Origin: a bacterium
GTDB taxonomy: Bacteria > UBP7 > UBA6624
Direction of reading: 5' to 3'
Assembly (NCBI GenBank): GCA_002716355.1
Contig: PBAU01000002.1
Span: 22,411 to 86,410 of the forward strand
DNA length: 64,000 nt
Made by a program: the position numbers and the translations under genes
The notes under the pieces: model-generated
Database searches by the model: none
Told to the model about the DNA's origin: nothing
Seen by the model: only the letters and a program-made list of their open reading frames with translations
Part shown: positions 9,312 to 39,664 of the stretch, piece after piece
How positions within the stretch are numbered: position 1 is the first letter of the stretch
Layout of the letters: each line of letters starts with the position of its first letter

Positions 9312-9374
9312 AGTTCACAAACCTCCAAAAAAATAGTTACTCTATTAGATTATAGGGATATATTTGTTTTCTGG

Positions 9375-10266: not shown

Positions 10267-10277
10267 TTAATATTGCT

Positions 10278-10360: not shown

Positions 10361-10371
10361 TGCTTAATATT

Positions 10372-10845
10372 ATGGATGTTTTAATTGGGCAAAAACTTGC
10401 AAAACTAAGGCAACAAAAGGGTCTTACCCTAAATGATGTTGCCAAAGAGGTGGGGATATCTGCTGTATACATCTCTCTATTGGAAAGAGGGTTAAGAAAA
10501 AACCCAAGCAAAGAAGTCTTGAAAAGATTGGTTAGCCTTTATGGTGTCTCTGAAACAAGCTTGCTTAAGCCAGGATCCTCGTCGCCACCTGTTGAGGATG
10601 ATTCTGGTGGTGTTGATTACACACAAACTCAAGTAACACCTGGAGCTATACCGAAAAATCCTCAGGGTATTCCTGTATCTGTTCGTCGTTTTTTAGAGAG
10701 TGAAGATGCTGATTTCCTAAGGCCAAGTGCCGGTGAAATACGAATCCTCGTTGCATGGGCGAGAAAAAACCACCATGCATCCCCTGAAGAAGTTATGTTT
10801 TATCTTATTGAGAAAGTGAGGCCATCACTACCAAAACAATTTTGA
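10372..10845 (+). CDS. XRE-family helix-turn-helix transcriptional regulator
   Basis: IGQKLAKLRQQKGLTLNDVAKEVGISAVYISLLERGLRKNPS is a classic Cro/C1 HTH. The track ORF (10153) reads through the tRNA-Leu, so I trimmed it to the ATG at 10372; an ATG at 10360 is an alternative. The C-terminal ~90 aa are uncharacterised. Confidence 0.7.
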   Translation: MDVLIGQKLAKLRQQKGLTLNDVAKEVGISAVYISLLERGLRKNPSKEVLKRLVSLYGVSETSLLKPGSSSPPVEDDSGGVDYTQTQVTPGAIPKNPQGIPVSVRRFLESEDADFLRPSAGEIRILVAWARKNHHASPEEVMFYLIEKVRPSLPKQF

Positions 10846-12011: not shown

Positions 12012-12892
12012 GGTAAAACACTTAAGGCAAAACTTGTTGTTAACCATGTTATAAACATGAAAACAACCACCGTACCCATTTCACCATGTTTTTGTTTGAA
12101 GATATGGTGAATGTGTCTTTGATCAGGTTGGGATATTTTTTTAAATAATTTTAAAAGTGTTCTTTTTTCCCCTTTCCTGAAGGGGGCCCTTCTTATAATA
12201 GCCCAAAAAACATCCAGGAAAGGCAAAAAGAAAAACAAAATAAAAAATTGAAAATGAATATCTGGATCAAATAATTCAGGTCCTCCAATTTGTGTAATTG
12301 AAATCCAAAATGCTATTGATCCGAGCAACAATGATCCGGAATCACCAAGATAAATGTGTTTATTTTTCAAACTTGAATAACCAGCCCCCAAAACAATAAA
12401 AGAAATTGCGAAATGCTGTCCTGACTGAAGGAATAAAACAAAACACAAAAGGGGCAGTAAACCATTAACACCGTCTAGAAAGTTAAACCCGTTAATGACT
12501 AACAACCCTAAAAGCAACAAAAAAACTAACTGATTTAAATTTAAATCGAAATTAGACAAAAACCAACAAATAACAATGGCTTGTAAAAACAATTTTTTTA
12601 AAGCTTTCATGTCGTGCAAATCGTCAAAAAAACCTATCATGAAAAACCCAAGAAATAAAAATGGCACATAAGGTGTTAAGAGCTGTATATCGATGCTGAG
12701 ACTGTCATAAATGAAAAAACATGCAAATAAACCAAACACAATTGCCCAGCCTCCTACAAGTCTTCCGGGGTTGTTCTTGTTTCCTGTTTGTCTTTGTTTG
12801 AAAATGTCTGCATCCTTAGAGCTCTTAGAAAAATAAAAAGACAGACATGTTGTCAGGGTGAATGAGAAAATTGCGGTAAAAAAATCAGTCAT
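12008..12892 (-). CDS. Polyprenyl-phosphate N-acetylhexosamine-1-phosphate transferase (MraY/WecA, glycosyltransferase family 4)
   Basis: Polytopic membrane protein with GFFDDLHDM, FNFLDGVNGL and YLGDSGSLLLG motifs typical of the family. Confidence 0.7.
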   Translation of the reverse strand: MTDFFTAIFSFTLTTCLSFYFSKSSKDADIFKQRQTGNKNNPGRLVGGWAIVFGLFACFFIYDSLSIDIQLLTPYVPFLFLGFFMIGFFDDLHDMKALKKLFLQAIVICWFLSNFDLNLNQLVFLLLLGLLVINGFNFLDGVNGLLPLLCFVLFLQSGQHFAISFIVLGAGYSSLKNKHIYLGDSGSLLLGSIAFWISITQIGGPELFDPDIHFQFFILFFFLPFLDVFWAIIRRAPFRKGEKRTLLKLFKKISQPDQRHIHHIFKQKHGEMGTVVVFMFITWLTTSFALSVLP

Positions 12893-12916
12893 TATTTGGT
12901 TTTTGGCTGAAAAAAA

Positions 12917-23989: not shown

Positions 23990-25013
23990 TAAAAATATTA
24001 GTTATATCCAGGCAATTACAGACACAATGTGGTCTGAAATGGAAATTGATGAAACGGTTTTTGTCTTAGGTCAAGATTGTGGAAGATATGGAGGCGTGTT
24101 TAAAGCCACAGCCTGGAGGTCGGAAAAAGACGGCAAACCTGATTTAAGTAAAAAAATGTATGATGAATTTGGACCATTGAGAGTTCTTGATGCACCTTTG
24201 GCAGAAAATGCAATCATCGGTGGTGCAATTGGTGCCGCTTTGTCTGGTTATAGGCCAATTGCTGAGATTCAATTTATGGATTTTATTGATTGTGCTATGG
24301 GCCATATCGTGAACCAAGCAGGCACTATCTCTTTTAAGACTAATGGTAGTTGGTGTTGCCCAATTACAATTCGCACCCCTTATGGTGGAGGTATTGGCGG
24401 TGGTATGACCCATAGCCAAAGCAATGAAGCTTGGTTTTGTCATGCTGGTGGTCTAGTTGTAACCGCACCCAGCACACCAAGAGATGCAGCAGGGCTTTTA
24501 AGATCCTGCATTAGGGCAGATGATCCTTGTGTGTATATTGAGCACAAAGGTTTATATCGAGCTATAACTGGTGATGTGCCTGATGATCCCAACTTCACTA
24601 TTGAATTAGGAAAAGGAAAAGTTGTTCGAGAGGGTAGTGATATTACATTGATTTCTTATGGCGCCATGTTGCACAAATGCTTAAGTGTTGCAGAAAAACT
24701 TGAATCTGAAGGCGCCAGTGTTGAGATTATTGATCCTCGAACATTATGGCCAATGGATGAAGATTTAATGATTAACTCTGCTTGTAAAACAGGCAGGTGT
24801 GTGGTTGTTGCTGAGTCACATGCGGCGTATGGTTTCACTAGCGAGGTTGCCGCAAGAGTGCAAGAGGGTGCCTTTTGGAACCTATTAACACCAATTCGTA
24901 CTATTGCAGGACCAGACACACCCTTCCCTTTTGAACCGGGAATGGAGGCTGCTTATCTGCCTTCAGATGATGAAATATACAACTCTTGTAAAAGAGCGTT
25001 GGGGGACGGATAA
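23982..25013 (+). CDS. 2-oxoacid dehydrogenase E1 component, beta subunit
   Basis: MSSKNISYIQAITDTMWSEMEIDETVFVLGQDCGRYGGVFKAT is a typical E1-beta N-terminus. I trimmed the track ORF (23946) to the ATG at 23982, which overlaps the E1-alpha stop by 8 nt. Confidence 0.85.
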   Translation: MSSKNISYIQAITDTMWSEMEIDETVFVLGQDCGRYGGVFKATAWRSEKDGKPDLSKKMYDEFGPLRVLDAPLAENAIIGGAIGAALSGYRPIAEIQFMDFIDCAMGHIVNQAGTISFKTNGSWCCPITIRTPYGGGIGGGMTHSQSNEAWFCHAGGLVVTAPSTPRDAAGLLRSCIRADDPCVYIEHKGLYRAITGDVPDDPNFTIELGKGKVVREGSDITLISYGAMLHKCLSVAEKLESEGASVEIIDPRTLWPMDEDLMINSACKTGRCVVVAESHAAYGFTSEVAARVQEGAFWNLLTPIRTIAGPDTPFPFEPGMEAAYLPSDDEIYNSCKRALGDG

Positions 25014-26251
25014 TGCCAATTAAAGTTCCAGTTCCCGATCTAGGTGTTTCTGTTGTTGAAGCCAAAGTGGCCGAATGGAAGAAAAAAATAGGTGATGATG
25101 TTGTTCGTGATGAAGAGATTGGTATATTGGAAACAGACAAGATAACAACCCCAATTACAGCATTCAAAGAAGGGAAACTTGTAGCACTTTTTGCAAAACC
25201 TGGGGATACCGTTCCCGTGGGACAAACTATAGCAATTATCCAAAAAGTTGGAGAAAATTTATCCCAAGAAGATATTGATAAGTTGAATCCACATGGTTCA
25301 AAACCGACACCGGAACCGACACCGGAACCGACACCGGAACCCATTAAAACAACTGTTGACACCAAACGTCAAGGCTCAAATCCCCAAACCCTTAAAACCA
25401 GTCCAGCTGTTAGAAGGTATGCGAGTGAGAATGACATTAACCTGGTTGATGTTCAAGGCACTGGCTCTAATGGAAGAATCCAAATGGCTGATGTTTTAGC
25501 GTTTAAAAAACCAATCAAATCTACGGGTTTAAATTTAGAACCTGATAATACTGAATCCAGAAGTCCTGTCAGCAGCTCCATGGCTGTTATGGCAAAACAT
25601 ATGGTTCACTCAGTGTCAACCAGCCCGCATTTTTTAATTGTTGATGAACTTGACATGACTGAAACATTGGCTGTATATAAGAATTTAAAACCAAAATTGC
25701 AAGAAAGCGGAATCAGGTTAACACTCATGAGCTTTTTTGTCAGAGCAGCAGCACAAGCGCTTAAGGATTTTCCAAGAATGAATGTTTCTCTTGAAAAAGA
25801 CACTTTGATAACCAAGAATTATAGAAATATAGGAATGGCAGCTAGTGTTGGGGAAAGTTTGATAGTGCCTGTTATCAAGAATGCTGATCTTTTAAATATT
25901 GAAAATCTTGCAGCTGAAATCAACAGATTGTCTATTGCCGCTCAGGAAAACAAATTAACAATGCAAGACATTACAGGTGGAACATTCACAATCACCAATG
26001 CAGGCATGTTTGGAGGCCCGTTATTTTCAGCACCTATTATCAATCAGCCTGAAGCGGCTATATTGGGTATTCACACAGTGAAAGAAAGAGCTGTTGTTGA
26101 GAATGGAAATATTGTTGTAAAACCAATGGTTTATGTATCCCTTTCAAGTGATCACAGAATGGTAGATGGCGTTTTAGCTGTTAGGTTTTTATGCAGGGTT
26201 AAAGAGTTGCTTCAGCATCCAGGCTTAATGGCAACTGGACCTCTTTTATGA
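25013..26251 (+). CDS. Dihydrolipoamide acyltransferase (E2)
   Basis: One lipoyl domain (LETDKITTPI), a PTPEPTPEPTPEP linker, a peripheral subunit-binding domain (SPAVRRYASENDINL), and a catalytic domain with SSDHRMVDG. Confidence 0.9.
   Translation: MPIKVPVPDLGVSVVEAKVAEWKKKIGDDVVRDEEIGILETDKITTPITAFKEGKLVALFAKPGDTVPVGQTIAIIQKVGENLSQEDIDKLNPHGSKPTPEPTPEPTPEPIKTTVDTKRQGSNPQTLKTSPAVRRYASENDINLVDVQGTGSNGRIQMADVLAFKKPIKSTGLNLEPDNTESRSPVSSSMAVMAKHMVHSVSTSPHFLIVDELDMTETLAVYKNLKPKLQESGIRLTLMSFFVRAAAQALKDFPRMNVSLEKDTLITKNYRNIGMAASVGESLIVPVIKNADLLNIENLAAEINRLSIAAQENKLTMQDITGGTFTITNAGMFGGPLFSAPIINQPEAAILGIHTVKERAVVENGNIVVKPMVYVSLSSDHRMVDGVLAVRFLCRVKELLQHPGLMATGPLL
25304..25342 (+). repeat. Three perfect tandem copies of a 12-bp unit (CCGACACCGGAA) inside the E2 gene
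   Basis: Read directly at 25304-25339, followed by CCC. It encodes the (PTPE)n interdomain linker. Confidence 0.9.
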
Positions 26252-27624: not shown

Positions 27625-27634
27625 GGAGAAAACA

Positions 27635-27814
27635 ATGTTTGGATTTATTTTTGCTTTAGGACCAACAGAAATTGCTTTAATTGCAGTTGTTGTTTTGGTT
27701 CTTTTTGGACCCAAAAAAGTTACAGAATTCGCAAGATCTCTAGGAAGAACTAGTGGTGAATTCAAAAAAGGACTTGAAGAGGGTAAAAAGACAACAAAAG
27801 ATAAAGAGGAGTAA
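27635..27814 (+). CDS. tatA: Twin-arginine translocase subunit TatA/E
   Basis: MFGFIFALGPTEIALIAVVVLVLFGPKKV... (59 aa). An AAGGAG lies 6 nt upstream of the ATG at 27635. The track ORF starts earlier, inside lpd. Confidence 0.85.
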   Translation: MFGFIFALGPTEIALIAVVVLVLFGPKKVTEFARSLGRTSGEFKKGLEEGKKTTKDKEE

Positions 27815-27823: not shown

Positions 27824-28534
27824 ATGCAAGACAAAAAAATGCCTCTGTCCGAGCATTTTGCTGATCTGCAAAAAACTTTATTAAACAGTCTTCTTTATTG
27901 TTTTTTTGCCTCTGTTTTGCTGTCCTTTTTTCATAAGGAATTATTAATTGCTTTTCAAAAACCACTAAACAATGTCGGAATTACTGCGTTAAATGTTTTA
28001 TCTCCACAAGAGGGGTTCCTCATCCCCATCAAGTTGGTTTTAATGTGTGGTTTAATTGTGGCAACACCTTTGATTGTTAGAGAGGTTACCTTATTTGCCT
28101 GGCCCGCATTAAGGCAAAATGAAAAACAAATACTTCAAACTTTTGTAATCCCAAGTTTTTTAATTGCACTTGTTGCAGCGTTTTTTGCTTGGCAGGTTTT
28201 AATACCAATATCAATTGAATTTCTGCTCAAGGCAACAACAAACAATAACCTACAAGCAACATGGACATTGCAATATTGGTTTGTTTTTGTTCAATCTATG
28301 TTGATTGCCTCTGTGGCTGCTTTTCAACTGCCAATAGTCATGGGGGTTTTAGCTAAATTCGGCTTAATTGACTCACATACGGTCCGGGAAAAAGGCCCAC
28401 ATGCAATTATTGGGCTATTGATATTATCTGGTTTTATAACCCCTCCAGATGTTGTCACGCAGATCATTATCGCCATACCATTAATCCTTCTGTTTTATTT
28501 CAGTATTTTCATAGTCAAGGCAAACGAGGATTAA
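27824..28534 (+). CDS. tatC: Twin-arginine translocase subunit TatC
   Basis: N-terminal MPLSEHFADLQKTLL and six hydrophobic segments, directly after tatA. Confidence 0.85.
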   Translation: MQDKKMPLSEHFADLQKTLLNSLLYCFFASVLLSFFHKELLIAFQKPLNNVGITALNVLSPQEGFLIPIKLVLMCGLIVATPLIVREVTLFAWPALRQNEKQILQTFVIPSFLIALVAAFFAWQVLIPISIEFLLKATTNNNLQATWTLQYWFVFVQSMLIASVAAFQLPIVMGVLAKFGLIDSHTVREKGPHAIIGLLILSGFITPPDVVTQIIIAIPLILLFYFSIFIVKANED

Positions 28535-28603
28535 ATCTAAAATTAATTCAGGTTTTTCAATAGAATTAAAAAGTTGTAGATTTGTACAAATGGAGGAAAA
28601 ATT

Positions 28604-30925
28604 ATGGCACGAATAGGTGTTTTTCTTAGCAAAGAGGGAAAAGGTTTAGATCCGCTTAACCTACAAACCATTGCTGACAGATTGGTTGAGGAAGTGCAGG
28701 AGATAAACCATGTTTTTATACATGAAGACCTCAACACAGTTCAAGGTTTGGAAGCAATATCACAAGAGATCAAAAATCAAGATATTGGCTATGTTGTTAT
28801 CGGTTGTGGCTCTATTGATCAAAGGGAAGAGAATATCAGAAAAACATTGAATACAGCTGGCATTAACGAATACCTTTTGGAGGTTGTTAATCTTAAAGAA
28901 ATGGTAGCTAACGTGCATTCAGAAGAGCCCGAGAAAGCCAATGAAAAAGCTTTTCAGCTATTGAAAACAGCAGTTATCAAGGTTGAGCAAAGTAAACCTT
29001 TAGAAAAAACACCAATGAGGGTGGAACAACAAGTTTTAGTTGTTGGCGGCGGTGTTGCAGGCATGACTGCTTCTTTGAGAATTGCAGATGCTGGCTACAG
29101 TGTTGTTTTAGTTGAAAAGTCACCTGCATTAGGTGGAAAAGTTGCCTCTCTCAAAAATCTTTGGCCAAAACTCGAAGAGGCAGATGACTTAATGAGGAAT
29201 CTTTCAATCAGTTGTCATCAACATGAAAATATAGTTATTTATGATTATTCAGAAGTTAAATCTATAGACGGAGTTCGTGGGGATTTTGATGTTGAAATAG
29301 TCAGAAAACCAAGATTTGTTCAAAGTCAAAAAATTGTAAATTTTGAAAAAATTACAGAATCATTAAAAACGGATTTTCCAAATAAGCACACCGGAGGCAG
29401 GACGGTGAACAAGGTTCTTTATCAACCATACGCAGGCTGTGTCCCACCATTGTTTTTGATAGACCCAGAAAATATAAATCATCCAGATGTCAAAAAGTTA
29501 ATCACACTTGTTCCTGATGGAACTGTGAATCAGAACGAAAAGGAAAAAATCGTTCATGAAAAAGCAGGTGCTGTGATTATGGCTTTTGGAGCTGGGATGA
29601 TGGATTGTTCTGGCTTAACAAATTTAACTGCTGCAAATAGTGAAAATGTACACAGTGCTAGTGATTTTGAATTTTTGAATTTCAAAAAAGACGAAGAAAT
29701 GTCGTTGTTATGGGTTGCAGATGCAGGAAGCAATGATCCCAAGAACGGTGTTGCTTACGCTTCCGAAGTGCCTTTGATGACCTGTGTCAAACAGGCTATT
29801 TTTGCTAAAAAAATGTCTAATGGAAAAATTCACACAACAGTTGTTTACTCAGATAGGAGATCCAGAACAAAAGGATATGAAGAATTTATCAAAACCGCTG
29901 AGGAAAAATACCAGGTACAGATGGTTAGAGGCGCTGTTTCAAATGTAACTTCAAAGTCAAACGGGTTGTCTGTCAGCTTGCACGATTTAATACAGGGCAA
30001 AGAGCAAAAGGTATCAGTTGACAAGGTTGTTTTGGCACAAGAGGTTGTTGCACACGATGATTCACAACATCTAGCAAGTATTGTTGATATAGGTCGTGAC
30101 GAAACAGGCTTTCTTGCTGAAACCCATCCTTCTCTGGAGCCATGTTCAACCAGTAATTCTGGAGTTTTTGTTTGTGGAGACTGTGCGTCTCCCGGTGATA
30201 TCAGAGCTGCTGTTTTGACAGCTGAATCAGCAGTTGCTAAAGCTATGGCCGTTTTGGCCCAAAAAACAAGTGAGCCCTACAGGTTAAAACAAAAAGATGA
30301 GCAACTTGCACGATTTGATGCTCCAGCAAAAGAGGTTTCTCCTGAGAGCTTTCAAACAAATGATGAAGGTGGCATGAATTACACAAGATTAAATAATGTT
30401 TTTGGTAAAACTGAAAGCGGTGTGTCCATACCAGCCTCACCAACCAGAAACATTGAACTTGCTGGTTGGGAGCTTTCTAAGTCAATTGCAGAAATTGAAA
30501 ATATTTGGACAGATGCAAAAAATGACAACTGGGAACCAAGAATAACAGGATTTGCATCACAGTATGGTGGTTATCCACTTTTGGAAACACTTGGAAGAGA
30601 GGAGGTTTCTTATTCATCTTGTTTTAGATTTCTGAGAGTGCGCTCAACAGCACATCTGGATCCACTCCTTGTCCTCAAAAGCTTCTTTAATGGTGCAGAT
30701 GGTGTGTTTATTATTGGTGGACCTTTAGGCAAAGGCAAGTTTCACAACGACAACTACCTTGCAAAAAGAAGATTTAAAGCATTAGAAGGGGTGCTTGATG
30801 CTGGTGGGATTGAGCCAGATAGAGTCAAGATTTTATTTGTAGATTCTCACCAAATTGATGAAGTTGCTGATCAGTTGCAAAAATTCCATAATGCTGTCTC
30901 TAGCTTAGGCCCTTTAGGTATTTGA
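28604..30925 (+). CDS. HdrA-like flavoprotein fused to an MvhD-like domain, lacking the Fe-S cysteine motifs
   Basis: 773 aa. The N-terminus RIGVFLSKEGKGL...VVIGCGSIDQREENIRK...AGINEYLLEVVNLKEMVANVH is colinear with the HdrA N-domain (recalled consensus KIGVxVCHCGxNI...VVVAACSPRxHE...AGLNPxLxExANIRExCSWVH). The FAD motif VLVVGGGVAGMTASLRIADAGYSVVLVEKSPALGGK is intact. WVADAGSNDPKNGVAYAS stands where CVGSRD...YCS is expected. The C-terminal 130 aa (30533-30922) are colinear with MvhD/FlpD but contain no conserved Cys. GGAGG lies 7 nt upstream of the ATG. Confidence 0.7.
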   Translation: MARIGVFLSKEGKGLDPLNLQTIADRLVEEVQEINHVFIHEDLNTVQGLEAISQEIKNQDIGYVVIGCGSIDQREENIRKTLNTAGINEYLLEVVNLKEMVANVHSEEPEKANEKAFQLLKTAVIKVEQSKPLEKTPMRVEQQVLVVGGGVAGMTASLRIADAGYSVVLVEKSPALGGKVASLKNLWPKLEEADDLMRNLSISCHQHENIVIYDYSEVKSIDGVRGDFDVEIVRKPRFVQSQKIVNFEKITESLKTDFPNKHTGGRTVNKVLYQPYAGCVPPLFLIDPENINHPDVKKLITLVPDGTVNQNEKEKIVHEKAGAVIMAFGAGMMDCSGLTNLTAANSENVHSASDFEFLNFKKDEEMSLLWVADAGSNDPKNGVAYASEVPLMTCVKQAIFAKKMSNGKIHTTVVYSDRRSRTKGYEEFIKTAEEKYQVQMVRGAVSNVTSKSNGLSVSLHDLIQGKEQKVSVDKVVLAQEVVAHDDSQHLASIVDIGRDETGFLAETHPSLEPCSTSNSGVFVCGDCASPGDIRAAVLTAESAVAKAMAVLAQKTSEPYRLKQKDEQLARFDAPAKEVSPESFQTNDEGGMNYTRLNNVFGKTESGVSIPASPTRNIELAGWELSKSIAEIENIWTDAKNDNWEPRITGFASQYGGYPLLETLGREEVSYSSCFRFLRVRSTAHLDPLLVLKSFFNGADGVFIIGGPLGKGKFHNDNYLAKRRFKALEGVLDAGGIEPDRVKILFVDSHQIDEVADQLQKFHNAVSSLGPLGI

Positions 30926-30928
30926 AAC

Positions 30929-31822
30929 ATGAATGAAATGAGAATAACAATCCAACGAGAAGCCAGAAGGCTTTTACAGCTGCAAAAAGTCAGCGTTGTT
31001 ATAGGTTATGAGGTTGGTCCATACCCTGGCACGACCGCTCCCTGTTTCGCTTTCACCCCAGATGACGCTCAAAGAATTGTTTTCAATAGCTTTTCGTCTA
31101 TCAATTTAGCCGTTTATCTTCCAGGCATTACTGGAAATGTTGGCATAGTGGCCACACCTGCAACTGTAAGATCCATCAAAGAGCTCGAAAAAGACGGCTT
31201 GGTGAATCGTAAAAATCTGCATATTATTGGTGTGAAATTTCCAGGAATATTAGATCCTCGACATTTAAATGTTGACAGAGAGAACGAAAATACGTTATCA
31301 GTCAATGAGCATCCAGAAGCTTTATGGGAGTGGGCACTTCATGATCTTTACGAGGAGCCAGAAGATTATGACATACTTGTTGAGCCCAGGTGGATGAATG
31401 ACCTCAGTAAAGCCGGCAAACTAAAAAAACCCACCCCAAACCGTACCAGCGTTGAAAGGTTAGAGCAGATGACTCATCACGAAAGAAGGCTATACTGGAT
31501 GAGTTATTTTGAAAAACATAGGCATTCAGACCATAATAAAAATTTATTTCCTTCCACTTATGCGGGAGGAGACCATTTAGAAAAGTTTAAATATATCAAA
31601 TCTGCATATAGCTCGAACGAGCTTTTTTACGAACATCTTTCATGGGTTTACCAATCGATGGGTCGAGCTTCTGGCTTCGATCTCTCAGACCTTACAGAGG
31701 ACATGAATCAAATACCCCTTTCAACAATTCGAGCTTGGGCTGCTAGAGAGTTTAGAAAAAATTTTAATTACAGGCCAGGTGGGGAAGAGCCAAATCCATT
31801 ACTGAAAAAGGAAAACATATAA
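30929..31822 (+). CDS. Hypothetical protein resembling the Fe-S subunit of FrhB/FlxC/HydB-type oxidoreductases, with a single Cys
   Basis: 297 aa. VSVVIGYEVGP...NLAVYLPGITGNVGIVATPATVRSIKELEK...NLHIIGVKFPGIL resembles the recalled (V/I)GxPCxxRA...(I/V)GxxCxG layout with the cysteines replaced. It starts 3 nt after the upstream stop. The family assignment needs an HMM search. Confidence 0.35.
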   Translation: MNEMRITIQREARRLLQLQKVSVVIGYEVGPYPGTTAPCFAFTPDDAQRIVFNSFSSINLAVYLPGITGNVGIVATPATVRSIKELEKDGLVNRKNLHIIGVKFPGILDPRHLNVDRENENTLSVNEHPEALWEWALHDLYEEPEDYDILVEPRWMNDLSKAGKLKKPTPNRTSVERLEQMTHHERRLYWMSYFEKHRHSDHNKNLFPSTYAGGDHLEKFKYIKSAYSSNELFYEHLSWVYQSMGRASGFDLSDLTEDMNQIPLSTIRAWAAREFRKNFNYRPGGEEPNPLLKKENI

Positions 31823-31823
31823 C

Positions 31824-32846
31824 ATGAGCGACTATATTTTGTCAAAAGCTAAATTGAAATATTGGTTAGAGGATGTCAGAAAACGAAATGAACTATGGGC
31901 ACCCGTTGGATCCAAAGGCGCTGTAAGTTATTTGAAAAATCCAAAAGGTGAAAATGTTGCAACAGATTTTACAAATAGTTTGGATTGTCCAAAGTATATA
32001 TTTTGCCCACAGCAAGATGCCATATGCAACTATGAGATACAAGGAAGAGGCAAGGTTGCTATTGAGGAAGTTGAGCTCGATGTGACTCCTAGAGTTGTAT
32101 TTGGCTTACGGCCACCAGACATTAGAGGCATCGAAATTCTCGATGCTTACCTGTTGAAAGATCAAATTGATCGGAGATACGAGGCAAGGCGAAAAAATAC
32201 AATAAATATTTGTCTTGGTTACCATAACCCACCTCCTTGCTGTTTCGCAGAGTCTGTAGGTGTCGATCTTTTTCCCAAGAGTGGCTCTGACATTTTGTTA
32301 ACTGATATTGGTAGGAGTTATTATGTTGAAACACTTTCTGAAAAAGGAGATAGCCTGATCTCGGAACATTTCAATGAAGCTGATGATATTGTTCGAAATG
32401 AAGCCTGGGATATACAGAAGGGAAGTGAAGGAAAAACAAATTTTGATTTAAATTTGAATCGTTGGCAGGATTTCACTGATACTGAAATTTACACTTTGCC
32501 GTATTGGGATGAAATTTATTTGGGCATTATTGCTGATTCTGTCGCAACCAGGTATTTTTACTCAGGAACTTATTTTAAGATTGTTGATGTTAACAGTGGA
32601 AACAAGGGCACAAGGTATAAAACCTGGACAACAATGTATTCTCCAGGCTTTTCAACATTGGCAAATGGTTATGACTACAAGCCAAGCCTCAAGGAAAAAT
32701 TTAAAGATTGGATATTAGAAATGTTTCATTTTTTTCCAAAAAGACATGGTTTTATTGGCTGTTCAGGTGCGCACAGGTGCATTGCAGGCATGACCACCAA
32801 GCATGACCTGAGAAAAATTATTTCTAATGTGGACTTTGGAATATGA
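31824..32846 (+). CDS. AsrA / sulfhydrogenase-beta (HydB, FlxB)-like protein with degenerate ferredoxin motifs
   Basis: 340 aa. ELWAPVG..., CPKYIFCPQQDAICNY, VVFGLRPPDIRGIEILD (expected GxRPCDxxAxxxLD), RRYEARRKNTINICLGYHNPPPCCFAES, and FIGCSGAHRCIAG (expected CVGCGRCxxxCP). There is no CxxCxxCxxxCP motif. Confidence 0.5.
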   Translation: MSDYILSKAKLKYWLEDVRKRNELWAPVGSKGAVSYLKNPKGENVATDFTNSLDCPKYIFCPQQDAICNYEIQGRGKVAIEEVELDVTPRVVFGLRPPDIRGIEILDAYLLKDQIDRRYEARRKNTINICLGYHNPPPCCFAESVGVDLFPKSGSDILLTDIGRSYYVETLSEKGDSLISEHFNEADDIVRNEAWDIQKGSEGKTNFDLNLNRWQDFTDTEIYTLPYWDEIYLGIIADSVATRYFYSGTYFKIVDVNSGNKGTRYKTWTTMYSPGFSTLANGYDYKPSLKEKFKDWILEMFHFFPKRHGFIGCSGAHRCIAGMTTKHDLRKIISNVDFGI

Positions 32847-33619
32847 ATTTAGTACCAAAGATAGCAAATATAAAAAATACAGAACGGGATGGTCGTTTAG
32901 GGTCAATATCATTTGATTTTGATGGGGACCTGAAGGCCGGACAGGTTTTCAAGATAGGGACCTTTGGAAAAGGAGAAACAACTGCTTGGGTCATAGATGC
33001 GGAAGATAAAACCGTAACCGTTTCGTTTCTGGATAACAACCCTGTCACACATAAAATCATGCTCCTTCCCACAGATGAATGCATTACTGTAAGAGGGCCA
33101 TTTGGCAATGGTTTTTCACTTTTAGATGAAAGAAATATTTTATTAATTAGTCAAGATGATGGAATATTAAGCCAAAAGAAACTTATTAATGATTTGCTCC
33201 AAAATGGTAATCAGGTCAGCTTGCTCCACTTCACCTCTTTTCCAAAAGATATATTTATGAGCTCTTCACTTAAAAAAGCTGTATCAGATGACTCTCCTAT
33301 CAATGGTGAAATTATCGATATGACAAAAAAAGGACCACAGGATTTAGATACGTTTATCAAATCTTGCATCAAGGCAAGTTACACCTCCGGAATAAACGCA
33401 GTGGCTCTATCAGGCAATGAGAATTTTCAGCAGTCTGTGTCGAGGGTTCTGGAGAAAACAATGATTAAAGATAAAAGCATACAAATTTTATTTAATCGTA
33501 ATTTTGTTTCAGGAATGGGTTGGTCTAACAAGGATCTTTACGGTACCACAAACATATGGAAAGAAGGGCCAGTATTTACATTAGATCAGGTTCGAAGATT
33601 CCCAGGTGTATTCATTTAA
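32843..33619 (+). CDS. PyrK / AsrB / HydG (FlxA)-like ferredoxin-reductase-fold protein lacking the 2Fe-2S and dinucleotide motifs
   Basis: 258 aa. VRGPFGNGF is the PyrK-family hallmark. The expected GGxGxxP reads ISQDDGILS. The C-terminal cluster site reads VSGMGWSNKDLYG where CGxGxCxxC is expected. There is a 4-nt overlap with the upstream gene. Confidence 0.55.
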   Translation: MNLVPKIANIKNTERDGRLGSISFDFDGDLKAGQVFKIGTFGKGETTAWVIDAEDKTVTVSFLDNNPVTHKIMLLPTDECITVRGPFGNGFSLLDERNILLISQDDGILSQKKLINDLLQNGNQVSLLHFTSFPKDIFMSSSLKKAVSDDSPINGEIIDMTKKGPQDLDTFIKSCIKASYTSGINAVALSGNENFQQSVSRVLEKTMIKDKSIQILFNRNFVSGMGWSNKDLYGTTNIWKEGPVFTLDQVRRFPGVFI

Positions 33620-34385
33620 TACTGCTATTTTTTGACAGCATCATTCCTAGTTCAGGATCAATGTCTTCGGCCCGAAAGCCATCAGGTATCCTTTCCAGCG
33701 TGCCATCAGGCACAAAACCCCTCAGTAGCTTTTTGGCATTCTTCCTTCTTTGAGAGAATATTTTTTTATTTAATTGCAAATATTGATATGAATATTGAAA
33801 ATCCTCCGTTTTTTCCTTATTCGTTAAGGTGATAATCGCACTGTCAATTTTTGGTTTTGGAAAGAATGCATTTTTTGAAATTTTTTTTTCAATCTTACAT
33901 GAATAAAAAAATTGCAATGGCCCAGAAAGAAGACCGTATGATTTAGAGCTGGTTTGAGAGCAGATGCGCTCGGCAACTTCTTTTTGAACGGTGAATATGG
34001 CGTTTTTTATCTTTTCTGGCCATCTTGCAACCAGCCATAAAATTCTCCCTGAAAGATAGTAAGGCAAATTGCCTACCAGCATGCCATTATTTTCAGCATT
34101 TTCAGGTTGCCATTTTCGAACATCCGTCTCGATGTTGATTGATGGAAATTTGTTTTTTAAAAAGGAATTGAGGTGTTCGTCAACCTCATAAACAGTTAGT
34201 CTATTTCTATAGGATATTTTTTCTGTTAGGAAGCCCAGGCCACCGCCAATTTCAATTGTCCAGTCACTTTCTTTTTCTTTAATTATGTTTGACAAAAAAT
34301 CAAGATTTGACTTATTTGTCATGAAGTTTTGACCACGATGTTTTTTGGGTGGATGATTACGGAAGTAATCAATCGCTAGCGACAT
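33612..34385 (-). CDS. rsmA: 16S rRNA (adenine1518/1519-N6)-dimethyltransferase
   Basis: Contains RGQNFMTNKSNLDFL and the SAM motif EIGGGLGFLTEKI. Its 3' end overlaps the convergent upstream gene by 8 nt. Confidence 0.85.
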   Translation of the reverse strand: MSLAIDYFRNHPPKKHRGQNFMTNKSNLDFLSNIIKEKESDWTIEIGGGLGFLTEKISYRNRLTVYEVDEHLNSFLKNKFPSINIETDVRKWQPENAENNGMLVGNLPYYLSGRILWLVARWPEKIKNAIFTVQKEVAERICSQTSSKSYGLLSGPLQFFYSCKIEKKISKNAFFPKPKIDSAIITLTNKEKTEDFQYSYQYLQLNKKIFSQRRKNAKKLLRGFVPDGTLERIPDGFRAEDIDPELGMMLSKNSSIK

Positions 34386-34720: not shown

Positions 34721-35644
34721 ATGAATCGTTTAAAAAGCATAAATCTACGTTTTTTGTTGATGCCCTTTGTTCTGGCTTTTATTTTTGCTTTTGAGGATAT
34801 TGACACTAAAGAGAAGTCAAGCGAGGAGTTATGGGTTGTAAATTTTTTAGCTGAAGGAGTGGTTTTACCACCCGGTCAGATAGATTTGCCAAAAATAACT
34901 ATCGATTACACAAAAACTGACCATGCCAAAATTGCTAAGAATCTTTTGGGTGCAGACATAGAGGCAGAAACCTCTGTCGGTTTAACCAGAGTTATCGATC
35001 AGGGTTTTCAAACATATGCAACCGAGGACGGCCGAGAATTATTGGTTTTTCCTCATGGTGGAATCACATTTAACCATCCTTTTGCCGGGGTGCATGAGTT
35101 GTTCCCATTAACCCGCACACAGGCAGAAAGTGTTCTGGATATTTTTAATAACAATTTTAATTATTTTCCAGAAGATGCCTCACTGGTCAATACAGGAGAA
35201 ATTAAACATCCAGAATATCAGTCTTTCAACAACAGTCAAGGATTACCGTTTGGTTACATTTATGAATATGGGCGTTATTTTAAAAATGTTCTCATTAAAA
35301 ATGATGTAGTCAGGGCTTTAGTGGTTGGCGGAAGAGTTTGGGAATTTTCATTTTCCTGGGGCGATCAGCCTGTTGAGATTGAAGACACTGAGGCAACAAT
35401 AATCCCAGCATGGTCTGCAGTTAAGGATGCCATCGAGTATGCGTATAGGAATTTTTACGCTGGAGAATATTACGCAGATGTATTTGTTACCAAGGTTCAA
35501 CTTGTTTATACTTTTGATGGCCTACAGGAGGCATGGAAAAAGGATGAACCAAAAAGATTAGTTCCGGCATGGGTGGTCCAGATAAATAAATCGAATGAAA
35601 TTATCTTAGAAGCTTTCACCGGTCAAGTTATTCCCATTTATTAA
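34721..35644 (+). CDS. Hypothetical exported or membrane-anchored protein
   Basis: 307 aa with an N-terminal hydrophobic segment (LRFLLMPFVLAFIFAF). No family recognised. Confidence 0.45.
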   Translation: MNRLKSINLRFLLMPFVLAFIFAFEDIDTKEKSSEELWVVNFLAEGVVLPPGQIDLPKITIDYTKTDHAKIAKNLLGADIEAETSVGLTRVIDQGFQTYATEDGRELLVFPHGGITFNHPFAGVHELFPLTRTQAESVLDIFNNNFNYFPEDASLVNTGEIKHPEYQSFNNSQGLPFGYIYEYGRYFKNVLIKNDVVRALVVGGRVWEFSFSWGDQPVEIEDTEATIIPAWSAVKDAIEYAYRNFYAGEYYADVFVTKVQLVYTFDGLQEAWKKDEPKRLVPAWVVQINKSNEIILEAFTGQVIPIY

Positions 35645-35690: not shown

Positions 35691-36803
35691 ATGAGTTCCA
35701 CCGAAGCAGGAGATGTTGTTGCCCAGGCTATACTTCAAAAATACCCTAAATCAAATGTATTTGTTAAGAATTTTGCAGATGGTGGTGAGGGAACGGCAGA
35801 TGTCCTGTTGGATTATTTCGATCATGAAGCTCACAAGGTTAAAACCCAAGGTGCCAACGGGAAGGATATTGATGCTTATTGGTATTTTTTGAAAAAAGAA
35901 AAAGTAGCCCTGCTAGAAATGGCTTCAATTGTCGGGATTTCAATGATTCCCAAGTCCGAATTAGATCCAGAGGCTTTAAGCACTTGCGGTCTTGCTCCAG
36001 TTATTATTGACATTCTTGAAAAAGGTATTAGAAAAATCTGGTTTACTGTTGGCGGAACCTCAACGGTTGATGCTGGACTTGGCTTGCTGAAAGGGATGGG
36101 CGTTTCCACACGGGAAGGGACATTTCCTAATTCATTATTAGCAGTAAAGAAAGATATTTTTTTTGATTTTAAAAATTTAGATTCGATGATTTCAGATCTT
36201 AAAATACACCCAGCAAAAGGCAGCTGTTTGTTTCCTGATGTTTTTTTTGATATAATAGCTGATGTTCGCGCTCCTCTTTTAGGTAAGCGAGGTGCTGTTT
36301 TGGCTTTTGGCAAGCAAAAGGGTGCTACCCCTAAAAATATTCCTATTTTGGAACAAGGGATGGCTGATTTTGCTTGTATGGTTGAAGCCAAAGTCGAGGA
36401 CTCGACCTTTTTGCAAACAAAAGGTTTGGGTGCTGCTGGCGGCATCGCTCTTGGGCTGGCCTTGCTTTTTAACGTGAATATTAAAAATGGAGCTGATTTT
36501 GTTATTGACAAAATGGGGCTCAGGGACGAGATGAGTAATTTTGATTTTGTGATAACAGGAGAGGGACAGTTTAACTCTCAAACCAAACAAGGGAAAGGGC
36601 CATGGTCTATTGCATCACTAGCTGTAAGTAATAGCACCCCAGTTTTGATTATTAGTGGTTTGAAAATTAAAGAAAGAAACAAAACAAAAGATTTTTCTTT
36701 CTTGGAGGTTTCTCAGACAGTCCCAAGAAACAAAAAAGAGGCACAATTAAATCTTTTCCAAGCTATGAGTGGATGGCTTGATGATAATGAGGTGAAAAAA
36801 TGA
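35691..36803 (+). CDS. Glycerate kinase (start codon problematic, see findings)
   Basis: FADGGEGTADVLL and FVITGEGQFNSQTKQGKGP match glycerate kinase signatures. The conserved N-terminal DSFKG motif is encoded in frame upstream of the first ATG (35691). Confidence 0.8.
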   Translation: MSSTEAGDVVAQAILQKYPKSNVFVKNFADGGEGTADVLLDYFDHEAHKVKTQGANGKDIDAYWYFLKKEKVALLEMASIVGISMIPKSELDPEALSTCGLAPVIIDILEKGIRKIWFTVGGTSTVDAGLGLLKGMGVSTREGTFPNSLLAVKKDIFFDFKNLDSMISDLKIHPAKGSCLFPDVFFDIIADVRAPLLGKRGAVLAFGKQKGATPKNIPILEQGMADFACMVEAKVEDSTFLQTKGLGAAGGIALGLALLFNVNIKNGADFVIDKMGLRDEMSNFDFVITGEGQFNSQTKQGKGPWSIASLAVSNSTPVLIISGLKIKERNKTKDFSFLEVSQTVPRNKKEAQLNLFQAMSGWLDDNEVKK

Positions 36804-39664
36804 AACAAAACAAAGTAATTGATATGGGTTTGATTATTACTGAAACCTTTGCAGGTATTATGCAGAAAAATATTGCAAAAGCAGGAACTTTAAAAGATCT
36901 AGAAGCCAGTTTTTTAGAATATGAGGATGCTATTGGTTTAGATGCAAAAATATTTGTTAAAAGATATGCTATGAAGTTTTTATCAAATTGTGCTTTTATA
37001 AAAAAATGGGATGATGGTTGGGTTTTAGTTCCTCATAAGCTAAAAGCACACAAGCTAGCAAGAGAAATACTAGAAGAAAGCGGATCTTTTATGTTGGAAT
37101 CCAAAATAAGAAGCCAAGTTGCTAAGCGACTCGGACAGAAAGTTAGTGAGACAAAGTTATATCTAGATATAGATGATGATTTTTCATTGGCGGAAGGCTT
37201 AAGGCAGGAAGATCAAATAGGCAGAGGTGCCATTTGGGGTTTGTGTGAATGGGTTTTGATTAATAATTTAGCAAAAACCCTTATTGAATCCCGAGGTCCA
37301 ATGAAAGAAAAAAGAATCATCAGCACATTGATCGAGAATGATTTAGTTACACAGGAAAAACAACCTGTTTTTTGCCCGCAGATAGACAAGAGATTTATAG
37401 CTGAATCAGGTAATTCATGGGATGTAGGAAAGGCAAAAAAGCAACCCCTTCAGACACCTAAAACCGGAGCTTTGGAGACCAAGATAAGAGAGGAGATAAC
37501 AAGCAAGGTAGAAAGATTGCTGGAGAATCAGGCATCAGACAAGAGTTTTTCAAAACAGGAGATTACAACTGCCCTGATTGGTAGTGCAAAAAGTTCTAAA
37601 GGTTCTCATTACCAGGACATGCTGGACGAGATCCTTTCTGTTTTTGAGAAATCTAAAAAGATAACCAAGGTTCGATTCGAACTTAAAAACCCATATTGGA
37701 TTAAGTCTGAAAGCCTGCCAAAGATAGATGTAAAAAAATTAGATCTAATTTTTCCACTCCCATATTCCGAACATCAGCTTTTGGGAGACGATATATTTAA
37801 TGAAAATCTTTTTGCAAATCTCTCTGATCCAGCTTTGTATTGGTTGGACGGGGATTTTTCCGAACAGGGTTTTCCTGAGGTGGAGCCATTGTTTATTTTA
37901 ACTTTCAATGACTTTGTAAATGACGAGTTAAACTACATATCACAACCATTGGTTAATGCTATTCAGGCTTCATTGCTTGCATCTAATGAGTGGGGTGAAT
38001 TTGTTTTACAAACACCCGACAAGCAAGAGCTTTCTATTTTGATTAATTTTAAGCATCAAATAATTTCAGGTATGGCATCCTGGGTTAATGGCTATGCCCA
38101 ACCTGGTGATGTTTACAATTTCGAATATCTCGGATCATCTACTTTCAGGCTTGTAAAAAATAAAGAGATTAAAAATCCATCACTAGATGACGATGAACTA
38201 GAAAGATTACTCTCCTTACAGGCAGAGAGCAAACTAACACTCAAAAAACTTGTAATTGAAGTTTTAAAACATCACCCAGGTGGTTTAACCTTCAGCGGTA
38301 TATTTAATCGCTTAATGTTTATAAGAAGAATTTCAAGAAGATCTTTAATGAGTGAGTTGACAAAATTCTTTTGTTTTGATTGTAAAGATGATAAATGGAA
38401 ATATTATGAAAAAAGATCTGACCTAGGAGAAAAGTTTTCTGCTAGCTCTTTTCCAATTGCTGGTTTAAATACCAATTGTTGGATATTGCGTGAGGAAATG
38501 CAGCCCGAAGTTGGGGATTCATTGAATATGGTTTATGGGAAAGCAGCACATAATGATTTGTTTTGCATTGTTAATCCAAAAAATCAACTTACCAGTGTGT
38601 TTCGATTAGCCGTTAAAGGTAAAAAATGCACAATTCAAGATATTACAAGCTGTGAGCCAATGCCTTTAGATAATTTTGATATCCCAAAAGCAGGTCTGAA
38701 TCAGATTGAGAATTCAGTTTTTTGTGACATTAACGAAGAGCTTGAAAGGGAGGTTTTGGATTCCGAAGTTTACGCAGGAATTAAGCAGGCCTTCACGACA
38801 TTTGAACCTAATCCAAGTGTAAACCAGGAGGTTACAAGAAGCTTAGAGGAGCTAGAGAGTCTTTTGGAGGATTCTGGTTCCGTTAGTCCATTCGGTGGCT
38901 TGGCATGGCAACTTCAGCAAAAATTTACCTGGCAGGAATTTCAAAAAGTTTTAGACTCAAAGATTTATTCTCAAGAGCATGAGGACCGTTTGGATGCAGG
39001 CAAGTTTGCAAGCTGGATGGCGAAAAGACCAATAGCATGGGACTCCGAATCGATTGTTTATCCAGCTGGACATGGGGAATTGTCAATCTGCATTCTGGAA
39101 GCATTGATTTCCATAATGCAAAATGCTGATTACACCATAGAGGAAGATTCACTTAACATTAGAACAGCCCTTAATAGCGATTTTGTTTTTAACTGGAGCA
39201 AACTGTTGTCAGACCAAAGAAGAATCAAGAAGATTGTTGACATGGAAGATAGTTTTGAATTAGTTGAATTTTTATCTGGCTGGTTTAGACGAGTAGCCAA
39301 GATTATTGAACCTAGAAAATTAGAAAGTGTAATTAACAGGTTAAGTTTTCACCTGAAAGGTATCGGATCTGTCGATATTAGCGATAAGGATTTGCCAGAA
39401 TATTTAAAATCAGAAAAATCTTCCCTGACAGGTCTAAGTCTTTCTGGAGACAAGCAAGAAAAATCTGCAACTTTGTTTGCAGATTTTAGAGGATTTTCAA
39501 AAGCCAAGATTAAGAAAACATTAAGCCTAGCACCTTCAGTTCTTGTTGATGGGGGACTGCTTGTTTTTGTTTCATTTGAAAATCAAAAAGTAAACTTTAA
39601 AAATGGAAAGCTAGAGGACCAGATCTCAATGGGTTCAATAGTTGCTAAATCTTATATCGTTTAA
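36800..39664 (+). CDS. Large hypothetical cytoplasmic protein (954 aa)
   Basis: Uninterrupted ORF with a 4-nt overlap with the glycerate kinase gene. I saw no P-loop, nuclease or methyltransferase motifs. Several segments look like winged-helix/HARE-HTH modules (for example LAKTLIESRGPMKEKRIISTLIEN and LVIEVLKHHPGGLTFSGIFNRL). Confidence 0.5.
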   Translation: MKQNKVIDMGLIITETFAGIMQKNIAKAGTLKDLEASFLEYEDAIGLDAKIFVKRYAMKFLSNCAFIKKWDDGWVLVPHKLKAHKLAREILEESGSFMLESKIRSQVAKRLGQKVSETKLYLDIDDDFSLAEGLRQEDQIGRGAIWGLCEWVLINNLAKTLIESRGPMKEKRIISTLIENDLVTQEKQPVFCPQIDKRFIAESGNSWDVGKAKKQPLQTPKTGALETKIREEITSKVERLLENQASDKSFSKQEITTALIGSAKSSKGSHYQDMLDEILSVFEKSKKITKVRFELKNPYWIKSESLPKIDVKKLDLIFPLPYSEHQLLGDDIFNENLFANLSDPALYWLDGDFSEQGFPEVEPLFILTFNDFVNDELNYISQPLVNAIQASLLASNEWGEFVLQTPDKQELSILINFKHQIISGMASWVNGYAQPGDVYNFEYLGSSTFRLVKNKEIKNPSLDDDELERLLSLQAESKLTLKKLVIEVLKHHPGGLTFSGIFNRLMFIRRISRRSLMSELTKFFCFDCKDDKWKYYEKRSDLGEKFSASSFPIAGLNTNCWILREEMQPEVGDSLNMVYGKAAHNDLFCIVNPKNQLTSVFRLAVKGKKCTIQDITSCEPMPLDNFDIPKAGLNQIENSVFCDINEELEREVLDSEVYAGIKQAFTTFEPNPSVNQEVTRSLEELESLLEDSGSVSPFGGLAWQLQQKFTWQEFQKVLDSKIYSQEHEDRLDAGKFASWMAKRPIAWDSESIVYPAGHGELSICILEALISIMQNADYTIEEDSLNIRTALNSDFVFNWSKLLSDQRRIKKIVDMEDSFELVEFLSGWFRRVAKIIEPRKLESVINRLSFHLKGIGSVDISDKDLPEYLKSEKSSLTGLSLSGDKQEKSATLFADFRGFSKAKIKKTLSLAPSVLVDGGLLVFVSFENQKVNFKNGKLEDQISMGSIVAKSYIV

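Follow-up and report, generated by a model that had tools for sequence, protein, structure and literature searches.

An Flx–Hdr-type operon of a marine bacterial lineage with an apparently preserved HdrA flavin site and almost none of its iron–sulfur ligands

The subject of this report is a four-gene operon at positions 28604–33619 of a 64,000-nucleotide (nt) stretch of bacterial DNA, taken from contig PBAU01000002.1 of assembly GCA_002716355.1 (positions 22,411 to 86,410, forward strand) and referred to here, at its whole length, as the window. The operon had been picked out in an earlier sequence-only reading, which described it as an HdrA/MvhD and Flx/sulfhydrogenase-like electron-transfer module stripped of nearly all of its iron–sulfur (Fe–S) ligands. 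It consists of the following features.

28592–28596, forward strand: GGAGG ribosome-binding site, 7 nt ahead of the gene 1 ATG (seen in the sequence itself)
28604–30925, forward strand: gene 1, a fusion of HdrA and MvhD (FlxD) of 773 amino acids (aa) with the type Ia HdrA architecture (open reading frame and homology)
30929–31822, forward strand: gene 2, an FlxC-like subunit of 297 aa (open reading frame and homology to canonical FlxC)
31824–32846, forward strand: gene 3, an FlxB/HydB/AsrA-like subunit of 340 aa (open reading frame, NCBIfam and Pfam)
32843–33619, forward strand: gene 4, an FlxA/PyrK/AsrB/HydG-like subunit of 258 aa (open reading frame and NCBIfam)

Genes 1 and 2 are separated by a gap of 3 nt and genes 2 and 3 by a gap of 1 nt, genes 3 and 4 overlap by 4 nt, and the four products contain 9, 1, 8 and 2 cysteines (Cys), respectively. 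These reading frames, junctions and counts, together with the GGAGG, were all reproduced from the sequence as the sequence-only reading had given them. None of the four products contains a CxxCxxCxxxC motif, and the sole CxxC among them is CGDC at residues 524–527 of gene 1. Their Cys content (0.3–2.4%, against 1.16% in neighbouring genes) is ordinary for this genome, and canonical HdrA relatives have a median content of 3.6%. The suggestion that ligand loss is specific to this locus is borne out by two proteins encoded in the same window that retain their cluster motifs, namely LipA, with CEEACCPNLPECW at residue 36 and CTRGCRYCSV at residue 62, and an aconitase/LeuC-like protein, with GSCTNAR at residue 342 and TCGPCLG at residue 405. 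A composition check gave the operon the same guanine-plus-cytosine content as the rest of the window, and recent horizontal transfer was rejected as an explanation, there being no compositional anomaly and the neighbourhood being syntenic across lineages.

Every gene of the operon is pairwise homologous to its Flx–Hdr counterpart, with FlxA the weakest case and detected by NCBIfam. The gene 1 product aligns end to end with the NCBIfam model HdrA2 (model positions 1–774 of 777, E value 4e-116) at 389 bits against a cut-off of 1100, and it is likewise below the other curated HdrA cut-offs of NCBIfam (276 bits against 1300 and 255 against 1400). Its residues 647–769 pass the Pfam model FlpD/MvhD (PF02662) with 85.1 bits against a gathering threshold of 22.3, and with the end-to-end HdrA2 alignment this confirms that gene 1 is an HdrA fused to an MvhD. 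Matches to solved chains include 5ODC_A (HdrA) and 5ODC_D (MvhD, E value 2e-18). The predicted model of gene 1 recovers 5ODC_A in Foldseek at an E value of 3e-52, and its predicted flavin core superposes on the solved HdrA chain 8RWN_A with a template modelling (TM) score of 0.89 and a root-mean-square deviation of 2.6 Å over 428 residues.

The gene 2 product matches no Pfam or NCBIfam model. Homology to canonical FlxC proteins of 283–335 aa nevertheless extends along the entire protein (about 28% identity, E value 1e-19), and these canonical relatives carry an FrhB_FdhB_C domain (PF04432) and two ferredoxin motifs; gene 2 has a putative FrhB/FdhB-type N-terminal domain followed by the relic of a 2×[4Fe-4S] ferredoxin domain. 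Foldseek searches with its predicted model return ElpB (8RVU_E, E value 1e-7), FdhB (7BKB_E) and FrhB, at TM scores of just 0.3–0.5. ElpB and FdhB dock onto MvhD/HdrA in solved supercomplexes (PMC12350162). The Cys-bearing relatives of gene 2 lie in hdrC–hdrB–hdrA–(DUF3108)–mvhD–flxC–flxB–flxA clusters (L011, L013 and L014; Armatimonadota, Latescibacteria and other metagenomic contigs).

Gene 3 aligns over nearly its full length with the NCBIfam models ShyB (E value 7e-19) and HydB (E value 2e-17), far under their equivalog cut-offs of 690 and 750, passes the Pfam model Fer4_22 (33.1 bits against 27) and matches the beta subunit of Pyrococcus furiosus sulfhydrogenase I (9NEZ_B, E value 3e-13). 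Genes 2 and 3 had both been taken as HydB/AsrA/FlxBC-like; this stands for gene 3, which is of the ShyB/HydB/AsrA type, and the HydB/AsrA assignment falls away for gene 2, which is an FlxC, probably of the FrhB/FdhB type. Gene 4 matches the NCBIfam model PyrK (E value 1e-13, 50.7 bits against a cut-off of 224) and chain 9NEZ_C (E value 5e-6), in keeping with its assignment to the PyrK/AsrB/HydG/FlxA group, and has no Pfam match, FAD_binding_6, NAD_binding_1 and DHODB_Fe-S_bind included. Over the profile searches and structure comparisons as a whole, the homology read from the sequence is significant, though mostly far below family cut-offs. As judged from these alignments, the window operon is (HdrA+FlxD)–FlxC–FlxB–FlxA, a derivative of the hdrA–flxD–flxC–flxB–flxA part of hdrCBA–flxDCBA. 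The latter is the order given, in a part of PMC12125255 that cites Ramos et al. 2015, for the NADH dehydrogenase/heterodisulfide reductase complex of anaerobic bacteria. The NCBI labels on these proteins are 'hydrogenase iron-sulfur subunit' for a Cys-free HdrA-like protein (P0005) and 'hypothetical protein' for a gene 2 orthologue (P0123).

Ligand positions were scored by aligning seven lineages of the clade that carries this operon with canonical operon proteins, and counting the columns that are Cys in all, or all but one, of the canonical sequences. By this measure 63 of 65 conserved canonical Cys columns are substituted in the window, consistently across the seven lineages, and the near-total loss of ligands that had been claimed from the sequence is thereby substantiated. 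The substituted columns comprise all 27 in the HdrA part of gene 1, all five in its MvhD part (now S, G, S, G and G), all 16 in gene 2, ten of 12 in gene 3, where C313 and C319 are kept, and in gene 4 the four [2Fe-2S] ligand columns and one further conserved Cys. The canonical layout of gene 3, with two CxxCxxCxxxC motifs and a third cluster site, is absent from the window protein. Most of the substitutes are I, F, L, V, A, G, P, M, W or gaps, and they are themselves conserved across lineages. The former cluster domains of gene 1 are located as follows.

29312–29542, forward strand: inserted ferredoxin relic, gene 1 residues 237–313; both CxxCxxCxxxC motifs gone, eight Cys columns now I, F, I, L, I, a gap, L and V
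29720–29776, forward strand: former HA4 site beside the flavin, gene 1 residues 373–391; C, C and CC now D373, A386, P390 and L391
30263–30523, forward strand: C-terminal ferredoxin relic, gene 1 residues 554–640; eight Cys columns now L, F, A, S, a gap, S, S and S
30524–30922, forward strand: MvhD/FlxD-like domain without [2Fe-2S] ligands, gene 1 residues 641–773 (Pfam FlpD)

The HA4 cysteines of canonical HdrA, counted on the 5ODC alignment, are C386, C399, C403 and C404. In the predicted model of gene 1, the predicted local distance difference test score is below 50 at residues 557–564 and 584–607. In gene 4 the former ligands are now S223, S228, D231 and W239, and the loop that binds nicotinamide adenine dinucleotide (NAD), GGGIGMAP in canonical proteins, has become SQDDGILS in the window and SMDMGLAA in the related locus L001; because this loop is lost, gene 4 looks like a pseudoenzyme. 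Across the seven lineages, gene 1 has two invariant Cys (C514 and C527), gene 2 one (C39), gene 3 four (C139, C140, C313 and C319) and gene 4 none, one orthologue of the last holding no Cys at all. Those of gene 3 form a vicinal pair, PPCCFAE (139–140), and the motif GCSGAHRC (313–319), they go back to two separate cluster sites of the canonical protein, and they could serve in metal binding, in a disulfide or in some other way. A single [4Fe-4S] site built from all four was considered and is unlikely, as they align to two canonical sites, one of which has been lost as a unit (S, S, N, S) and the other kept in the partly depleted relative L019, described below.

The flavin site of HdrA presents a different picture, and is, on the alignment evidence, preserved in detail with the surrounding clusters all gone. 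An alignment of 24 sequences spanning the clade, intermediates and canonical forms shows G148, G150, G153, E171, G177, G178, E356, K396 and D532 (of the GD motif) to be invariant, and D417 and R419 of gene 1 are likewise listed as invariant. K396 (codon 29789–29791) aligns with K409 of the HdrA of M. thermolithotrophicus, and E356 with its E356; K409 is reported to contact the flavin N5 and E356 to position that lysine (PMC12054007). It had been suggested that the complex might work with flavin only, and for gene 1 this option is favoured by the specific retention of the HdrA flavin-site residues. Two Cys, C514 and C527, flank the GD motif of the flavin adenine dinucleotide (FAD) site, the former being Cys in every clade member examined (seven lineages) and Val in all 18 canonical sequences. 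The CGDC at 524–527 was also considered as a new redox-active disulfide, and rejected since its first Cys is Ala (AGDC) in both deep lineages. As background, type Ia HdrA2 reacts directly with F420H2, and a Moorella HdrA homologue with NADH (PMC5296606).

That the operon is maintained and not decaying, as the sequence-only reading had proposed, is well supported. The ratio of nonsynonymous to synonymous substitution rates (dN/dS), estimated by the Nei–Gojobori method for five pairs and to be read as approximate because dS is saturated (>1) in every pair, is 0.045–0.083 for gene 1, about 0.02 for gene 2, 0.023–0.044 for gene 3 and 0.057–0.092 for gene 4. Comparison genes from the same genomes give 0.043–0.064 (LpdA, E3), 0.05–0.10 (TatC) and 0.14–0.20 (glycerate kinase). 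Across the deepest split, genes 1–3 retain 51–60% amino acid identity and gene 4 36%, against 54% for LpdA, 64% for GyrB and 33–34% for TatC and glycerate kinase, in line with the dN/dS values. Internal stops are absent from all 16 independently assembled loci, three deep lineages at about 50% identity among them; the genes are full length except where a contig end cuts them, and lengths and junctions are conserved. The four proteins are under strong purifying selection.

This selection is unevenly spread. The proportion of invariant columns is highest in the MvhD-like domain (52%), the N-terminal domain of gene 2 (52%), the former ferredoxin of gene 3 (48%) and the former [2Fe-2S] tail of gene 4 (47%), and lowest in the NAD-like domain of gene 4 (14%) and the inserted former ferredoxin of gene 1 (18%), such that the MvhD-like domain is the most conserved domain of gene 1 and the inserted relic the least. 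The pattern fits an assembly along the old inter-subunit path with no need for NADH input.

Sequence searches point to a tiny clade within a deep-branching marine bacterial lineage. Five clade clusters came from a word-indexed search of 5.8 billion proteins and two from an exhaustive phmmer search of 1.84 billion representatives, in which no other hit exceeded 34% identity; GTDB holds three species representatives. All sources are marine metagenomes or metagenome-assembled genomes (MAGs), and the same operon was recovered in independent assemblies from Tara, bioGEOTRACES, JGI, Logan and NCBI MAGs. No GyrB relative outside the clade exceeds 52% identity, and these relatives are spread over mixed phyla, which places the lineage far from named phyla.

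Among the nearest HdrA relatives the word-indexed search gave no intermediates; the exhaustive phmmer search found them. Of the nearest outgroup HdrA proteins, two are partly depleted in Cys, one (P0280) belonging to loci L019 and L020 (a bioGEOTRACES contig; GCA_027058205.1) and the other (P0312) to L021. The L019 operon (8001–13126) has the order tatC–hdrA–mvhD–flxC–flxB–flxA-like. Its HdrA lacks the ligands of HA4 and of the N-terminal HA3 as well as half of the inserted ferredoxin, and keeps HA1 and HA2, with both C-terminal ferredoxin motifs; the Cys columns retained in its other subunits amount to three of five in MvhD, 13 of 16 in FlxC, eight of 12 in FlxB (both ferredoxin motifs) and all four [2Fe-2S] columns in the FlxA-like protein. 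In this last protein, which has no above-threshold Pfam domain, the NAD loop is already degenerate. The L019/L020 type thus resembles the window operon in its upstream tatC, its gene order, the loss of HA3 and HA4, the lack of HdrB and HdrC and two derived motifs, L[WY]PxLExA in place of TFPTLDCxxC and (S/T)E(V/I)PLM in place of CSKxCCMY; it differs in that MvhD is a separate gene in L019, that more Cys are kept and that identity to the window proteins is 20–33%. In a neighbour-joining analysis (Kimura distances) with 20 canonical FlxC proteins, the FlxC of L019 groups with the clade at 99% bootstrap.

Since L019 has lost the flavin-proximal clusters of HdrA yet keeps most of the others, the sequences indicate that cluster loss was stepwise and started at the flavin, the bifurcating connection going first and the distal wire later. 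In the other relative, L021 (1679–5703), the HdrA–MvhD fusion P0312 has 8 Cys, lacks the inserted ferredoxin domain, has intact C-terminal ferredoxin motifs, and adjoins an NfnB/GltD-like gene and an FlxC-like gene. An FlxB–MsrA fusion that comes next in L021, joining an FlxB-like N-terminal domain to part of MsrA, was considered as a functional clue and discarded, for it contains only the C-terminal half of MsrA (model positions 69–152) on a single 6-kilobase contig and is probably a chimera or truncation.

Upstream of the operon lie genes of the twin-arginine translocation (Tat) system.

About 27630–27810: tatA open reading frame, just before tatC
27824–28534, forward strand: tatC, the upstream neighbour (Pfam TatC in orthologous loci)

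In L019, as in every lineage of the clade, the gene immediately preceding the HdrA-like one is tatC; canonical Flx–Hdr clusters have no adjacent tatC. The tatC stop and the gene 1 start overlap in L001 (9327–10004/10001), L022 (4000–4530/4527) and L019 (7286–8008/8001); in the window subclade they are instead separated by about 70 nt, a spacer that holds its own GGAGG. TatC of the window and of L019 are just 30% identical, and all other flanking genes differ in L019. The adjacency may reflect a functional link or, equally, dependence on the tatC promoter. Scans for promoters and terminators around the transcription unit returned chance-level hits only and were uninformative, and neither a Tat signal nor a known Tat-chaperone family was detected. 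At the other end, an rsmA/ksgA-type methyltransferase gene (33612–34385, reverse strand) is convergent with gene 4 and overlaps it by 8 nt (33612–33619), which leaves no space for a terminator between the two; this tail-to-tail arrangement is also kept in relatives.

It is useful to set the operon beside the systems it most resembles. The closest is FlxABCD–HdrABC, with which it shares the subunit set and order from hdrA onward, each subunit being homologous. It differs in that HdrB and HdrC are missing from the locus (tblastn with queries from L011 and L014 found neither in the 64-kilobase window, L001 or L019), that HdrA and FlxD are fused, that the Fe–S wire and the NAD loop of FlxA are gone, and that the operon occurs in a marine lineage which also encodes a lipoate-dependent 2-oxoacid dehydrogenase. 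Because the cluster columns and the NAD loop are lost and HdrBC is absent, the window complex would be unable to oxidise NADH or to bifurcate as proposed for FlxABCD–HdrABC. On present sequence evidence it is a clear Flx–Hdr descendant that lacks the defining functional features of its family, namely the Fe–S wire, the NADH site and HdrBC at the locus. Compared with flavin-based bifurcating enzymes in general, the window keeps the flavin site and has no cluster path on either side of it. The type Ia protein HdrA2 of Methanosarcina acetivorans HdrA2B2C2 shares the fused architecture, the FAD motifs and the equivalents of K409 and E356, whereas the window protein lacks the ligand sets, scores 389 bits against 1100 and has no HdrB2C2 partner at its locus. 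The cofactors of HdrA2 are four [4Fe-4S] clusters, one [2Fe-2S] cluster and FAD (PMC5296606), and the type Ia classification is set out in PMC12054007.

The beta and gamma subunits of P. furiosus sulfhydrogenase I (9NEZ_B and 9NEZ_C), AsrA/AsrB and PyrK can be aligned with almost the whole of genes 3 and 4; the solved proteins have Cys motifs at their cluster sites, and the window has no hydrogenase subunits. A reduced HdrA-like flavoprotein is known from aerobic, non-methanogenic sulfur oxidisers in the form of sHdrA, which has shed most of its cluster domains. The Hyphomicrobium denitrificans protein (6TJR) has the same TrxR-like FAD core as gene 1 (phmmer E value 1e-11; with the predicted model, Foldseek E value 1e-21 and TM score 0.85) and differs in being 349 aa long with no MvhD or Flx partners. 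It still binds one [4Fe-4S] cluster and works with homologues of HdrB and HdrC. Relic subunits without cofactors also occur in active Hdr complexes, as exemplified by ElpA (PMC12350162) and a Cys-less Molybdop clade (PMC12054007). There, as here, a homologue of a catalytic subunit is kept in the complex after loss of its cofactor site, but in those cases one subunit is affected and the Fe–S wire and bifurcating core are intact, whereas here the whole complex is stripped.

The explanation that we favour, at about an even chance, is that the operon is a domesticated, vertically inherited Flx–Hdr descendant, most probably a flavin-only two-electron oxidoreductase in which three cofactor-less subunits act as a scaffold. 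Its ancestor would have been the NADH-dependent, flavin-based electron-bifurcating FlxABCD–HdrABC complex of anaerobes, with HdrA and FlxD since fused. The four proteins probably still assemble, given that the domains of the canonical inter-subunit path are the best conserved, into a complex that should be able neither to take electrons from NAD(P)H nor to bifurcate. The sole catalytic element left would be the HdrA FAD, with its invariant N5-contacting Lys and the Glu that positions it, and this would make flavin-only two-electron chemistry, with a hydride or a dithiol, the most likely activity. Loss of HA4 may open the flavin site. As a thiol partner the flavin may have C514, which this clade alone has gained, and the invariant C527.

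Several points weigh against this explanation. Motifs are all that FAD binding by gene 1 is predicted from, and the flavin of canonical HdrA is buried and served by clusters, so that substrate access in gene 1 is conjectural. The first Cys of the CGDC is replaced in the deep lineages (AGDC), saturation of dS makes the dN/dS values approximate, and long-branch attraction could have raised the neighbour-joining support that joins L019 to the clade. Genes 2 and 3 are moreover better conserved than gene 1, which is unexpected for a mere scaffold, and the key function could instead sit in one of them, the predicted fold of gene 2 being FrhB-like. FrhB-family proteins bind flavin (PMC12350162).

The strongest of the alternatives, which we regard as unlikely without considering it far-fetched, is that the complex is a fully non-catalytic pseudoenzyme with a structural, regulatory or chaperone-like role and a purely structural FAD, possibly linked to Tat export (for example of folded, cofactor-bearing substrates). 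No cofactor site is recognisable any longer in three of the four subunits, the best-conserved regions are the former inter-subunit and cluster domains and not the catalytic pocket, the higher conservation of genes 2 and 3 would suit such a role, and ElpA and the Cys-less Molybdop clade provide precedents. For a Tat link in particular, the tatC–hdrA adjacency has outlasted both the divergence of TatC and the turnover of the other flanking genes, and the two genes overlap in L001, L022 and L019; this adjacency is, however, explicable by promoter dependence, and the searches for a Tat signal and for known Tat chaperones were negative. Against the non-catalytic reading as a whole, K396, E356 and the full set of dinucleotide motifs are invariant, which a structural flavin or an empty site would not need.

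That the complex is still an electron-transfer chain, with clusters or other redox cofactors held by His, Asp, Ser, Glu or the remaining Cys, we consider very improbable. The four invariant Cys of gene 3 with their GCSGAHRC motif, the Ser at three former Cys positions of the C-terminal relic of gene 1 and the Asp at one such position in gene 4 might be taken as replacement ligands, but most of the substitutes (I, F, L, V, A, G, P, M, W or gaps) are unable to ligate iron, the gene 3 residues belong to two canonical cluster sites of which L019 has lost one as a unit, and the invariant Cys number one in gene 2 and zero in gene 4. With most sites gone, there would be no continuous chain between subunits.

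Slow decay of pseudogenes, or relaxed selection that has not yet led to disruption, is effectively refuted. It could draw on the loss of all known functional sites other than the flavin site, on scores far under the curated cut-offs and on the fast evolution of the NAD-like domain of gene 4; these are outweighed by dN/dS values of 0.02–0.09, at or below those of neighbouring essential genes, by the lack of stops and frameshifts in 16 loci and three deep lineages, and by the conservation of gene lengths, of junctions and of the very residues that replaced the ligands. The least credible alternative, an artefact of assembly, binning or a wrong genetic code, might be entertained as all the sequences are metagenomic and is likewise effectively refuted, the operon having been recovered independently in Tara, bioGEOTRACES, JGI, Logan and NCBI MAG assemblies, neighbouring Fe–S enzymes showing normal Cys motifs under translation table 11, and the substitutes being so chemically diverse that no single codon reassignment restores Cys.

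With dnaA, dnaN and gyrB, the window covers the replication-origin region of a heterotroph, and it also encodes thiolases, a urocanase, peptidases and a lipoate-dependent 2-oxoacid dehydrogenase. The dihydrolipoamide acyltransferase (E2) of the latter (25013–26251) has a perfect PTPEPTPEPTPEP repeat in its linker, and the E2 of the close relative L010 is split into two called genes, of 117 and 255 aa, possibly through a problem of assembly or gene calling at the repeat. Two proteins without a Pfam family lie downstream of the operon on the forward strand, one of 307 aa (34721–35644) with orthologues of 302–311 aa at the same position in those related loci long enough to show it, and one of 954 aa (36800–39664) with orthologues of 954–964 aa at the same position in L001, L002 and L005–L008. 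Several further open reading frames of the window are without a Pfam match, and the lineage is rich in conserved proteins of no recognised family. A 445-aa OmpM-like protein with a single N-terminal SLH domain (7974–9311, reverse strand) hints at diderm Terrabacteria and is too little for a placement. The sole Rfam matches in the window are tRNA genes at 6676–6748, 6766–6838 and 10278–10360, and there is no rRNA on which a taxonomic placement could rest.

Full-text literature searches found no description of a Cys-free Hdr or Flx module, in agreement with the sequence-only reading, which knew of none. Surveys of HdrA diversity, in the passages searched, describe the gain and loss of cluster-bearing domains and mention no cluster-less HdrA. 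Taken at its broadest, the finding would be that a whole multi-subunit Fe–S machine, with about a dozen or more cluster sites in four proteins, was turned stepwise into an iron-free one that is kept under constraint of housekeeping level and has a new job, as either a flavin–thiol oxidoreductase (using the HdrA flavin, C514 and C527) or a TatC-coupled non-redox assembly; this is a tentative proposal, to which we attach rather less than an even chance. Living lineages record the series, from canonical forms through the L019 type to the window clade, and, if the proposal is true, this would be the first time that a bifurcating complex is seen to have been 'de-ironed' wholesale and repurposed. 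The change may represent the adaptation of a formerly anaerobic lineage to an oxic, iron-poor ocean, and the operon thus bears on the fate of anaerobic enzymes when lineages enter oxic, iron-limited habitats, a question raised in PMC6085437.

Flx–Hdr complexes are usually defined by their Fe–S wires and taken to signal an anaerobic energy metabolism based on bifurcation; in this operon the framework outlives the clusters under strong selection. The label 'hydrogenase iron-sulfur subunit' on such proteins would lead to the wrong assignment of Fe–S or hydrogenase metabolism to MAGs of this lineage. The canonical, intermediate and stripped forms together make up an ordered natural experiment on what such folds do without their clusters and, should a new flavin-only or Tat-linked function prove true, the operon would add a new class of enzyme or chaperone.

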